Numbered from the stretch's first letter, positions 1,530-17,131 are shown. The stretch: 64,000 bases of DNA from Candidatus Kapaibacterium thiocyanatum (GCA_001899175.1 MKVH01000014.1:8907-72906); one strand, 5' to 3'. Notes: generated by a model from the sequence alone, not told the origin. A program made the numbers and translations.

Positions 1530-4500
1530 ATGCTTCAAACAAACGGTTGGTATGGCCGGTGCACGGCATGGACAGTCATGCTGGTATTCGTACTGGAGGC
1601 TCTGGCACCCACGGTGGCCAGAGCGTTGACGTCCGGTCCGTCACAGCCGGAGTTTTCCGGTTTCGAACCGGTCGGTACGACGGGACTCGTGAACGAAGCG
1701 ACCGGTGGCTTCAGCTATTCGATACCGATCGTCCAGGTTCCGGGGCCTAACGGAAGTACCTATCCACTCACTCTTTCCTATCACTCGAATACGGGTGTGG
1801 AAGAGGATGCGTCGTGGGTGGGTTATGGCTGGACGCTGAATGCGGGATCGATCAATCGCAGCGTACGGGGTCTTCCGGATGATATAAACGGTGAAAATAT
1901 CATCGAATATCACAGCCAGCCGATGGACGAGACCTATGCAGTAGGGAATTCGATCAAGCCACAGGCGGCGAGTATCGACATCTTCAGCTTCGACCGTGCC
2001 GTGACGTACAACACGCGTGCCGGCTACAGCCTGGTAAGCGGTATGTCATTGAACGTCGGCAACATGCTCTCGCTCGATCTTCGCCGCGACAACGGTCGTA
2101 TGCGCTATGGTATCCGCCCGAACTGGGCCAATCTCTTCTCGATGGCTGCGACGGAATGGCTCGCCGAGAAGGGACAGGCACAGATCAAGAAGGAAATCGC
2201 TGCGGCGACCGGAATGAAGAAGCTGATCATGAACGCCATGAACAAGCAACGTTTGCAGAACATCCAGAAGCAGGCGACGGTGTTCTCGACGGCGGCGAAC
2301 TACGTCGTCAACATGATGAATTCATCGTCCATGCCCGTGTCGACGCTGAAGTATTCGGGCGAGGACTACCACCTGAACTTCGGTTCGACGCTGGCCATTC
2401 CCGGTATTCCCATCATCATCGGTGGCCATGGTGGTGTTCGCGGATCGTACAGCGTGAAAAGGTTCGGTGACAATACGGGAACGGCTCCGGATCATTCCAG
2501 GGTCACTGCCTATGGTTACATGTATCAGAAGTCCGGCATCTTCGACGCGGACATGCAGGACTATTCCACGCAGGTCGAATCGTCGTTCGATACACGCGAC
2601 AGATACATCTCACCTGCGTATTCCGGGGCGGACATGTTCTCCGCATCGGGACAAGGGATTTCGGGTGCCTTCCGCTTCTGGCAGCAGAAGCCCGGCGCAT
2701 ACCGGCCGAGGAAGGTGACCAGTTCGCGTACCCAGTTGAAGGGCGATGTGGAAGGCAGCCTTTCGTTGGACAAGTTGTCTCTCGGTTCGGCGGTTTCCTT
2801 CGGATACGACGAGACGACGGTCCAGGGTAATCTCAATACGGCGCTGGCTGCAGCATTCTTGAACGAAGGCTATGCCGACCGGGTCAAGAACGGCGTATTC
2901 GCGCGGATGACCAACGATCCTGCCGATCGCATCCTCTACTACCCTTCCGACGCTCCGGAATACTCGTTCGGCGGTGGTGCCTACGTCGCCAGTGCCTATA
3001 GTCGAATCAACAACGCCGCATCGGGTCTGGAACGACCCCGTTCGTCCACGGCAGTCCAGTTCCGGACGAATCAGGAGATGACGGGATTCCTCCGTGCTAC
3101 GGGAAGCGGATCGGCGACCGGCACGGGTGGCTTCACCAAGGGAACGATGTCCGTGCATTCCACGAGCGTCAGCAAGACGTCGGGTCTGATGCGTAGCGGA
3201 TCGAACATCCATAACCGTATCGGTGAAGTCGCGATGACGACATCGTCCGGTATGACCTACGTCTATGGGCTTCCCGTCTACTCTTGCGATGAACGTAGTC
3301 TGCAATTCATGGGACGCCGGGTCGCGGACAGCTACCGACACTGGAACAAGCTCGCCCAGAACAAGGATCTGTCGACGACTGATCCGAAGGTCCAGGTAAC
3401 GGGGACCTATCGTGCGGCACCATATCCGGGTAGCCATCTTCTGACGGAGGTGCGTACACCGGACTACATCGACCTGAAGAACGACGGGCTTACGATGGAC
3501 GATCTAGGTGGATGGACGTCGTTCACCTATCGCAAGGCTGCCGGCGGCCAGACCAGCAGGAAGCAGGACTGGTTCCGGTGGCGCATGCCGTATTCGGGAT
3601 TCTACTATCACGCCGGCAGTCATACGTCGGGCAGTGATGACCGTGCGACCGTATCGTCGGGCTATCGCGAACTCCACTACCTGGAGAAGATCGAGACGAA
3701 AACGCACGTCGCCTACTTCGTGACGAACAAGACGAACAAGACGGTGACCGTCGGTGGGCAGACGCTGTCGTTGCAGGGATCGAACGCCAAGCGTCTCGAT
3801 GCATGGGAAGCCTACAATGCGACGGGCCGATACGACGAGGATGAGAAAGTATCCGCGGAGTGGAAGGACAGTGCTCTGCTTCCTGCCGTCTATCAAGGTC
3901 CTGAACACGTGGGATTGTACGGCAAGAAACTCGGAGGACGCCGCTGGAACAGCGATCCGTGGGGCGCCGATGGCGATCCGGTCGAGCAAGGTCTCGCGCG
4001 CGAGAACAAGAGCGAATATCTCGAGAAGATCATCCTGGTCGCGAAGAAACCGACGACGGGATATGAATTGCTGCAGACGGTGAACCTCGAGTACACCTAT
4101 GAACTGCAGGAATCCCGTGCCGGTAGCTGGGTACAGACGACGATCTGGGATCCGGTGCTCATGCAGGACGTGGAAGTGATGGACGTGAATATGCACGACA
4201 CGATCTATGCCGTGCCGGGCAGGCTCAATTCATCCGTCATGTTCACGAGCGATCGGGTTCACCCTGCCCATACCGCAACACGGATGAACGGCAAGCGCTT
4301 CGGCAAGTTGACGCTGAAACGGGTATGGATGGACTACGGCACGGCGAAACGTGCCGATATCGCGCCATACGAGTTCGAGTATCTCTACAGGGACAACAAG
4401 AAGAATCCGTATCCGAAGGAACTCGAAGGGAATATCCTGCTCGATTCCACGCGTGAATATGGCAGACGCTTCAGTCATTCCGATACCGGCAGTCTCGACT

Positions 4501-16685: not shown

Positions 16686-17131
16686 TGTCGACAAGATGGT
16701 GCTATGGGATCGTTGTACTGATCGGTCTGCTCGTTTCCGCGTGTGGCGGTACGCACGGACATGTCGGTCAGTATTGGGTACCGGGAACGACCGATGAAAT
16801 ATATGACACGCTGCATGATATCGCTGCAGATAGCGCAAGTGGAGTCAGTCTTGTCGACAATGAGGACTACGGTCTCAAACCATATCTGAGGGTCACTATC
16901 CTGACTCCTGGTTATTCCATCAAGGGAGTAACGTTGCGTGTCAGCACACCTCTTGAGCGTGACGGTGCACGAGGATGTCTGGTCAGCATCGTCGACGTGC
17001 GGCGTAAGGATGGCGTCAATTGCCATTCGGGCGACTGTGCCGCGAAAGAGGTTGAAGAAGGCAAGAAGGCTGCCGAGGCATTCCTGATGGGACCGTTGAG
17101 ACGATCGTTCAGAGTGGACCTCATTGACTAG
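16682..17131 (+). CDS. Small lipoprotein, candidate immunity protein for the upstream RHS toxin tip
   Basis: Its ATG overlaps the stop of the RHS gene (ATGATG/TGA). The N-terminus MMSTRWCYGIVVLIGLLVSAC has a lipobox (LVSAC). It is 149 aa with no known family, and GC is locally lower. Position and size are typical of RHS toxin/immunity pairs. Confidence 0.55.
   Translation: MMSTRWCYGIVVLIGLLVSACGGTHGHVGQYWVPGTTDEIYDTLHDIAADSASGVSLVDNEDYGLKPYLRVTILTPGYSIKGVTLRVSTPLERDGARGCLVSIVDVRRKDGVNCHSGDCAAKEVEEGKKAAEAFLMGPLRRSFRVDLID

Follow-up and report, generated by a model that had tools for sequence, protein, structure and literature searches.

A widely conserved operon in which a remote TcB-like protein precedes a giant RHS protein in Candidatus Kapaibacterium thiocyanatum and Bacteroidota

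How Sec-dependent toxins with an RHS/YD shell leave the producing cell and enter a target without a type VI secretion system (T6SS) or the TcA subunit of toxin complexes (Tc) was described as an open question in a 2026 study of teneurin-like proteins (TLPs; PMC13018210). A locus of Candidatus Kapaibacterium thiocyanatum raises the same question. It lies in a stretch of 64,000 nucleotides (GCA_001899175.1 MKVH01000014.1:8907-72906), here called the window, to which all coordinates refer. We studied four open reading frames (ORFs), all on the plus strand: P1 (1530–8066; 2178 amino acids), P2 (8063–8947; 294 amino acids), P3 (9015–16685; 2556 amino acids) and P4 (16682–17131; a lipoprotein of 148/149 amino acids). 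An earlier reading made from the sequence alone (the sequence-only reading) had placed four ORFs at these positions and strand, assigned the host to the Fibrobacterota-Chlorobiota-Bacteroidota (FCB) group, and described the locus as a hybrid between the BC part of a Tc toxin and a polymorphic RHS toxin. The ORFs and the host group were as described, and the label is a fair one. P1 matches a hypothetical protein recorded for this organism with 100% identity. We show that the gene cluster is real and widely conserved, that it is undescribed in the literature we searched, and that it occurs in Bacteroidota-like bacteria.

The RHS protein and its TcB-like neighbour

P3 is, as far as sequence can tell, a bona fide polymorphic RHS toxin. 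Behind a signal peptide and about 200 variable residues it carries an FN3-like and DUF6443 module (9675–11114; residues ~221–700, with the Pfam DUF6443 match at residues 386–529), then a Cys-rich middle region of about 1,000 residues (10860–13799) that holds 40 of its 48 Cys and is poorly conserved outside the clade, and finally the RHS region with shell, core and cleavage motif (13800–16022; shell residues ~1596–2252, core residues 2253–2336). The RHS-associated core matched the NCBIfam model TIGR03696 over its full length (E=1.1e-11; 45.1 bits, cutoff 32.5). In a phmmer comparison with PDB sequences, residues 1596–2332 aligned with the T6SS effectors RhsP (8h8a; E=1.5e-7) and RhsA (7q97), and T6SS-associated Rhs effectors were the best PDB matches of P3. 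Pfam RHS_repeat gave one weak match. The cleavage motif, PILALDLDGL (DLDGL at 16008–16022), corresponds to PxxxxDPxGL with Leu replacing Pro, and the DLDGL form is kept in orthologues.

Orthologues of P3 are 84–90% identical over the N-terminal body and 83–87% over the 700 residues before the motif. Two of them, P0123 and P0124, share 87% identity with P3 over those 700 residues and only 20% and 17.5% past the motif, and the divergence starts exactly between DLDGL and the following E. Unrelated tails past DLDGL in orthologues that are otherwise ~87% identical indicate classic C-terminal displacement. The cocoon-type polymorphic toxin with cleavage motif and variable tip that the sequence-only reading had recognized is thus borne out by the TIGR03696 match, the motif and the swapped tails.

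The tail itself (16023–16682) appears to be phospholipase A2 (PLA2)-like. Searched alone, it matched the Pfam family Phospholip_A2_4 (PF08398) with E=6.9e-5 and 23.5 bits (cutoff 23.9), and it had no match among PDB sequences. It contains YIGPWN and HDLMYD, candidates for the YxGxG/N Ca-loop and the HDxxY catalytic motif, and the stretch YIGPWN ... DAGALIHDLMYD corresponds to the YxGPxN/HDxxY signature known from PLA2 domains of the parvoviral type. Between 15900 and 16900, which takes in the toxin tip and the first part of P4, the GC content falls to ~0.50 (flanks ~0.58–0.60), as would fit a recent exchange of toxin and immunity genes as one cassette. P4 carries the lipobox LVSAC and its start overlaps the P3 stop; such ATGA-type start/stop overlaps join both P1 to P2 and P3 to P4. 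From its position and translational coupling P4 is probably the immunity protein, a role that had been proposed for it before and that the lipobox and the overlap fit. A periplasm-facing lipoprotein suits a lipase toxin.

Ahead of the RHS region, the isolated FN3/DUF6443 module scored 36.6 bits against DUF6443 (cutoff 27.8), and its profile contains YD-like motifs. The profile also aligned with residues 1775–1862, in the YD-shell region, of the mosquito protein SGS4 (PDB 9on3; E=3.6e-4). In the SGS4 paralogue SGS1, the matching stretch, which lies just past a lectin-CRD insert (residues 1575–1715), is Rhs/YD shell (PMC9935623). This alignment links the bacterial module with the horizontally acquired SGS cocoon proteins. 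For the Cys-rich middle region, Pfam gave no match.

P1 is toxin-less. In the predicted fold, an N-terminal domain of the TcB/SpvB type is joined by YD-shell-type sheets and an insert resembling a carbohydrate-binding module (CBM). AlphaFold2 models were built as two halves on a 53-sequence alignment and covered residues 30–1229 (mean predicted local distance difference test score, pLDDT, 73.7; predicted template modelling score, pTM, 0.76) and 1200–2178 (pLDDT 73.0, pTM 0.64). Long beta-hairpins dominate both. The SpvB-N-terminal-like beta domain (1689–2519; residues ~54–330) carries WVGYGW at residue 96 and a helical-hairpin insertion at residues ~199–263. It is followed by a long beta-hairpin region that resembles an RHS/YD shell sheet (2520–7250), in which RHS repeats are not detectable by sequence, and by the CBM-like jelly-roll insert (7251–7604; residues ~1908–2025). 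Conserved YD-like hairpins close the protein (7623–7775; residues 2032–2082; family consensus YVYD..RL..FDD.HF..YQY..EG.L.R..ETERG); their strands were modelled with pLDDT >85, dropping to <45 in a disordered tail of ~95 residues (to 8063).

In sequence searches the likeness of P1 to TcB was confined to its N-terminus. The Pfam SpvB model (PF03534), which describes a TcB N-terminal domain of ~290 residues, matched P1 at model positions 3–59 only, with 18 bits against a cutoff of 22, and five diverse P1 homologues likewise gave only sub-threshold N-terminal SpvB or DUF6531 matches. With hhalign, the P1 family and SepB, the TcB of pADAP, aligned over 51 columns of the N-terminal motif only (37% identity). 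Neither TcdB_toxin_midN/midC nor RHS repeats were matched in P1 by Pfam at E<=10, and an FG-GAP/VCBS-type beta-propeller, the cocoon gate and TcA-docking element, was not found in P1, nor were an RHS core or a toxin domain. NCBIfam and a phmmer search of PDB sequences gave no match to P1. We conclude that the resemblance to TcB is genuine and remote: P1 is a distant structural relative of TcB and not a member, because neither a propeller nor mid-domains, RHS repeats or a TcA partner were found. Of the identification of P1 as TcB in the sequence-only reading, the SpvB-N-like domain and the YD-shell-type sheets therefore stand as remote likeness, whereas the propeller, midN/midC and RHS repeats are missing and the SpvB match stays below threshold.

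P1 founds an uncharacterized family, and a large one. A phmmer search with residues 30–1229 against 1.84 billion representatives (50% cluster level) retrieved 4,718 relatives at E<=1e-3, of which 2,167 had E<=1e-30, and no Pfam or NCBIfam model covers P1, of which the searched literature makes no mention. The P1 homologue of many taxa is divided between two adjacent ORFs of ~1,650–1,900 and 350–1,700 residues (L006, L028, L031, L037, L040, L041, L045, L057, L062, L067, L080 and other loci), so P1 seemingly consists of two separable units with a break near residue ~1650.

The pair of genes recalls the BC subcomplex of Tc toxins from Photorhabdus, Yersinia and Serratia (for example TcdB2-TccC3, YenB-YenC, SepB-SepC). 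There, too, an SpvB-N-type shell gene lies just 5′ of the RHS gene, and the RHS protein, like P3, combines an RHS core with an autocleavage motif of the DPxGL type and a toxin tip that is hypervariable. The differences are considerable. Unlike its Tc counterpart, P1 has no beta-propeller gate, TcdB_mid domains or sequence-level RHS repeats, has no TcA nearby, and is 2,178 residues long compared with ~1,430–1,470 for TcB (SepB: 1,428). TcC consists of an RHS region of ~680 residues that starts at the N-terminus, the RHS core aspartyl autoprotease and a hypervariable toxin of ~280 residues. Core, motif and hypervariable tail are alike in P3, but ~1,580 extra residues (signal peptide, FN3/DUF6443 module and Cys-rich region) precede its RHS part, whereas SepC measures 973 residues in total. 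The TcC architecture that had been assigned to P3 therefore does not hold. Moreover, P1 and P3 bear Sec signal peptides, and an OmpH chaperone and small envelope proteins are encoded in place of a lysis cassette. The presumed immunity gene, a further difference, points to an antibacterial and not an insecticidal role.

Tc subunits assemble in the cytoplasm, and the genes for TcA and BC are unlinked in some bacteria. A conventional Tc (ABC) toxin with its TcA gene elsewhere in the genome would agree with the latter, and the portion of the genome that we inspected for TcA was ~90 kb. However, a TcA-like gene was found neither in the window, as had been noted before, nor in the 27 kb upstream, nor within 10 kb of ~90 related loci. 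A phmmer search with SepA (TcA) gave no match in any locus or in the window, and the Pfam domains VRP1 and Neuraminidase were absent among the called genes of the loci examined. P1 also lacks the propeller that docks TcB onto TcA, and signal peptides on P1 and P3 are at odds with cytoplasmic assembly. We rejected a conventional Tc locus because TcA was missing from the window, the upstream 27 kb and the related loci, and consider this explanation very improbable.

The operon in other genomes

The canonical gene order comprises an OmpH/Skp-like gene, a gene for a lipoprotein of ~200 residues with a lipobox, P1, a gene for a protein of ~240 residues and the gene for a giant RHS protein. We saw this order in Sporocytophaga, Halocola, Dawidia and one more genome, with Dawidia lacking the OmpH and ~200-residue genes. 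In the window, the conserved part of the operon opens at 808–1428 (plus strand) with the gene for the OmpH/Skp-like periplasmic chaperone (Pfam OmpH, E=1.2e-22). The unit is thus larger than the sequence-only reading had it, with this gene upstream; it is conserved across Bacteroidota, and it is tandemly duplicated in the present genome.

Scanning for P1-type loci in one genome per GTDB species, we found the operon in at least 576 loci (species genomes). Among the matches listed, the carriers were almost all Bacteroidota (Cytophagales, Chitinophagales, Flavobacteriales, Saprospiraceae), joined by Kapaibacteria and Chlorobiota. Neighbourhoods were profiled with home-made hidden Markov models in 84 non-redundant loci, 74 of which had enough upstream flank while 63 were assessed downstream. 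On the 5′ side of the P1 homologue, OmpH was present in 53/74 loci and the ~200-residue lipoprotein in 52/74, and 63/74 had one or both. On the 3′ side, a giant ORF on the same strand followed in all 63 loci, and 59 of these giants had detectable similarity to the RHS region or the module of P3; the ~240-residue protein was found in 20/63. The reverse test gave the same picture: when only the N-terminal module of P3 was used to retrieve proteins, each of the four examined was preceded by a P1-like gene. Because the same arrangement repeats in ~90 independent loci, it is not due to chance. The gene-order survey in relatives that the sequence-only reading had suggested thus confirms the succession of P1 and a giant RHS gene, but the Cys-rich P2 turned out to be clade-specific.

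With synteny this close to universal, we consider it improbable that P1 is a surface or adhesion protein without relation to TcB, placed in one operon with RHS toxins and resembling TcB only through the generic similarity of beta-hairpin sheets. The N-terminal motif, which is the SpvB/DUF6531 signature, likewise argues against that explanation.

Within the P3 N-terminus, only the FN3/DUF6443 module (residues ~240–700) recurs in the downstream proteins of other taxa: it was kept in 48 of 49, while the remainder of the N-terminus varied. Homologue coverage dropped from ~47/49 over the module to at most 10/49 in the Cys-rich middle region. In one locus (L030) the module directly adjoins the RHS region in an RHS protein of 1,535 residues. 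Fusions of P1 with an RHS protein were not found among 88 loci. Some downstream RHS partners carry adhesin-type N-terminal domains (PKD, Laminin_G, TSP_3, Ig_7). In searchable literature on Rhs proteins, covering Bacteroidota, Skp, type IX secretion and cocoons, we found no description of the operon and no mention of DUF6443.

A variant was seen in Cytophagales-type loci (L010, L011, L013, L014, L033, L082), where the module protein measures ~1,500–1,650 residues and RHS is not detectable with phmmer. In most of these loci a gene for ~150 residues and more large ORFs come after the module protein, and in L082 a separate RHS protein of 1,611 residues follows it directly.

Export, assembly and comparison with known systems

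Signal peptides were judged by eye and from hydropathy. That of P1 (1530–1625; residues 1–32) ends in PTVARA, followed by LTSGPSQPEF; public gene callers start P1 at 1578, giving 2162 residues. Most of the 53 P1 homologues, namely those called from a full-length start, have a basic n-region, an h-region and AxA, followed by a near-invariant LTSGPSQPEF. Export signals are also evident in P2, P3 and P4; for P3, public gene callers start at 9060 (M16, 2541 residues, MRRSTVLLLLCLLSVMPVMA followed by QK). P1 and P3 look Sec-exported, as the sequence-only reading had held. A location in the cell envelope is suggested by the family signal peptides, by the concentration of Cys in P2 and in the P3 middle region, and by the lipobox of the ~200-residue protein. 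As a separate observation, the signal h-region in the 53-member alignment very often contains a conserved acidic/polar residue and a Pro (..LLxE[IL]xxPxxAxA before LTSGP). Plain Sec signals do not usually show such residues, which might indicate special processing or anchoring.

On balance, we read the locus as one copy of an operon, conserved in the FCB group, for the production and deployment of a polymorphic RHS toxin that is exported by Sec, with P1 as a B-like partner. After Sec export, the Skp-like chaperone would keep both giant beta-rich proteins assembly-competent in the periplasm. The RHS shell and core of P3 should encapsulate the C-terminal toxin and cut after DLDGL. P1 would bind the FN3/DUF6443 module of the RHS protein and, as the B-like partner, would extend, cap or anchor the cocoon and present it at the cell envelope, so that a TcA injector would not be needed. 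Target cells would be touched by the variable adhesin-like N-terminal domains and the Cys-rich domains of the RHS protein. A PLA2-like toxin would act on the phospholipid of membranes, reaching it from the periplasmic or the outer side, and the lipoprotein P4 would protect the producer. The system would be antibacterial; related loci carry orphan toxin/immunity cassettes downstream (WHH/SUKH, Imm8, HNH/SMI1).

P1 could have a more intimate part in the capsule. If its C-terminal YD hairpins ran into the YD sheet of P3, the two proteins would form a single closed shell around the PLA2 toxin and P1 would be an obligatory half of it. Such a joint B/C cocoon agrees with the TcB-like N-domain and shell-type sheets of P1, with its strongly conserved YD-like hairpins, which end in a free edge, with the YD-like repeats and SGS4 alignment of a P3 module that is conserved in the partners (48/49), and with the B-then-C gene order of Tc loci. 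Against it, the P1 sheet alone (~1,700 residues) is as long as a whole TcB-TcC fusion (6sue_F, 2168 residues), while the cargo measures ~220 residues; P3 owns both an N-terminal shell-like module and an RHS core cap; the RHS protein of L030, in which the module adjoins the RHS region, is apparently self-contained; and P1-RHS fusions are missing from the 88 loci. We regard a joint cocoon as possible but doubtful. Alternatively, P1 might stay outside the toxin capsule and join the Skp-like chaperone, the lipoprotein and the ~240-residue protein in an outer-membrane-associated platform that moves the giant RHS protein or tethers it at the cell surface, in function much as CdiB does for CdiA. The Skp/OmpH chaperone and lipoprotein conserved at the head of the operon, the export signals on all components in the presence of no other secretion signal, and the adhesin-type partner domains, which make sense only outside the cell, speak for such a machine; we nevertheless find it unlikely.

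Several points weigh against the reading of the locus as a deployment operon with P1 as B-like partner. In P1 and P3 we found neither a type IX secretion system (T9SS) C-terminal domain nor another known outer-membrane export signal; surface display is therefore an assumption. Contact between P1 and P3 is likewise something we infer. P3 may close its own cocoon without P1, because the FN3/DUF6443 module itself looks like a YD-shell sheet, and with this module and 745 residues of RHS it is perhaps shell-sufficient alone. For P1, the models represent half-proteins from a 53-sequence alignment with a mean pLDDT of 73, and a Foldseek search of the model against the PDB gave nothing significant (best E=0.012). 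The 53-member family profile matched no Tc or Rhs structure in the PDB and none of the RHS proteins. The PLA2 match of the P3 tail lies 0.4 bit under the Pfam cutoff, and P4 matched no Pfam or NCBIfam family and no known immunity family. Finally, genes for the ~200-residue lipoprotein and the ~240-residue protein are absent from the window copy, which, without these two otherwise conserved genes, could be partly defunct; the reduced copy would probably borrow both proteins from the complete copy upstream.

Known systems share parts of this design. Zhang et al. (2012) described 'TcdB/TcaC-type' polymorphic toxins, also from Bacteroidetes, in which a signal peptide, SpvB and an integrin-like propeller are fused to RHS toxins (PMC3482391). 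They resemble the present operon in the Sec signal, the SpvB-type N-terminus, the RHS polymorphic toxin with immunity genes and their occurrence in non-pathogenic bacteria. However, SpvB and propeller lie on the toxin chain there, whereas the SpvB-like part lies here on a separate, propeller-less and toxin-less protein of ~2,000 residues, and the conserved genes for OmpH, lipoprotein and small protein go unmentioned in that paper ('OmpH' is absent from its text; PMC3482391). T6SS Rhs effectors (RhsA, RhsP, Tse5, Tse15) have the shell, RHS core, C-terminal cleavage and toxin/immunity logic of P3. In contrast to them, the proteins described here have Sec signal peptides, and P3 has a huge Cys-rich extracytoplasmic region; Pfam, NCBIfam and called-gene annotation showed no PAAR, VgrG or Eag chaperone domains in P1–P4 or their annotated neighbours.

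Teneurins and bacterial TLPs offer a further comparison. Like the present system, TLPs are YD-shell toxins that depend on Sec, have decorated shells, come with immunity genes and show no evident machine for delivery. TLPs are single chains with TIP, TTR, FN-plug and NHL-propeller domains, are rare and occur mainly in Myxococcota (PMC13018210), whereas the present system has two large components and accessory genes and is common in Bacteroidota. Pfam found no NHL, TTR or TEN_YD-shell matches in P1 or P3. The bacterial-derived RHS cocoons SGS1 and SGS4 of mosquitoes are very large YD shells with inserted CBM/lectin domains (PMC9935623). The alignment of the P3 DUF6443 module to an SGS4 shell segment and the CBM-like insert of P1 are points of likeness; SGS proteins differ in being eukaryotic, single-chain and equipped with two propellers (PMC9935623).

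With a TcB-like partner of ~2,000 residues and a dedicated Skp-like chaperone beside the toxin, the operon offers a concrete and very common candidate answer to how Sec-dependent RHS toxins are deployed. We put forward, tentatively, that P1, the Skp-like chaperone, the ~200-residue lipoprotein and the ~240-residue protein could form an unrecognized envelope apparatus with which Bacteroidota and Kapabacteria, independently of TcA and T6SS, export giant RHS cocoons, display them and discharge them. If so, polymorphic toxins would have a new route of delivery, centred on a shell protein derived from TcB. The findings also suggest that a broader family of shell partners, used in warfare between bacteria, gave rise to the B subunit of Tc toxins or has a common ancestor with it. 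Since the operon is carried by culturable genera (Flavobacterium, Chitinophaga, Sporocytophaga and Taibaiella), the question of deployment is accessible to genetics and cryo-electron microscopy.

The tandem copy and neighbouring genes

The DNA that immediately precedes the window (L008:1-27776, L001:1-10000) holds a second module, which is complete. It starts with OmpH, a lipoprotein of 184 residues, P1′ (2172 residues), a Cys-rich protein of 270 residues and a protein of 242 residues, and continues with an FGE-sulfatase-domain protein and P3′ (2591 residues). An orphan RHS fragment of 940 residues, a DUF1990 protein and an FG-GAP/ASPIC propeller protein of 780 residues follow before the OmpH gene of the window is reached.

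The Cys-rich protein between P1 and P3 that the sequence-only reading had noted is P2, a secreted protein with 18 Cys among 294 residues. P2 has two close orthologue clusters only, with similar proteins limited to L009 and L012, and is 37% identical to the 270-residue Cys-rich protein, the first small protein of the upstream module. We rejected P2 as the conserved small partner, given that it has close orthologues only and aligns to the first and not the second small protein upstream, and that the window has no counterpart of the widely conserved ~240-residue protein. P2 is a Kapabacteria-specific extra.

The 780-residue protein is encoded by an FG-GAP_3/UnbV_ASPIC beta-propeller gene (L001:6749-9091) whose 3′ end occupies 1–668 of the window (plus strand; Pfam UnbV_ASPIC, E=1.2e-11); its membership in the operon is uncertain. 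An FG-GAP/ASPIC gene also lies 5′ of P1-like genes in L009, L012, L039, L043 and L093, a recurrence confined to Kapaibacteria, Chlorobiota and Ignavibacteria-type loci and not seen in Bacteroidota loci. It is pure speculation that this protein could make up in trans for the missing propeller of P1. Directly 3′ of P4, a gene for a DUF6157 protein (17177–17590, plus strand; Pfam E=1.9e-62) encodes no signal peptide, and its membership is doubtful. Scans for promoters and terminators gave nothing exceeding shuffled expectation.

Elsewhere the window contains housekeeping genes for leucyl-tRNA synthetase (LeuRS), a UvrD-type helicase, an M16 peptidase, amino-acid permeases and an aldehyde dehydrogenase. 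Two proteins of ~1,650 residues made of HYDIN/ASH/Cep192-type Ig domains are encoded at 20664–25715 and 53909–58837. The first also has Laminin_G_3 and a weak T9SS C-terminal sorting domain, and an OmpA-family gene (58854–61019) comes after the second. The permease genes at 17707–19164 and ~19200–20579 lie in tandem; an ORF of 722 residues that starts at 18411 overlaps the first of them, and its permease match is confined to its C-terminal ~460 residues.

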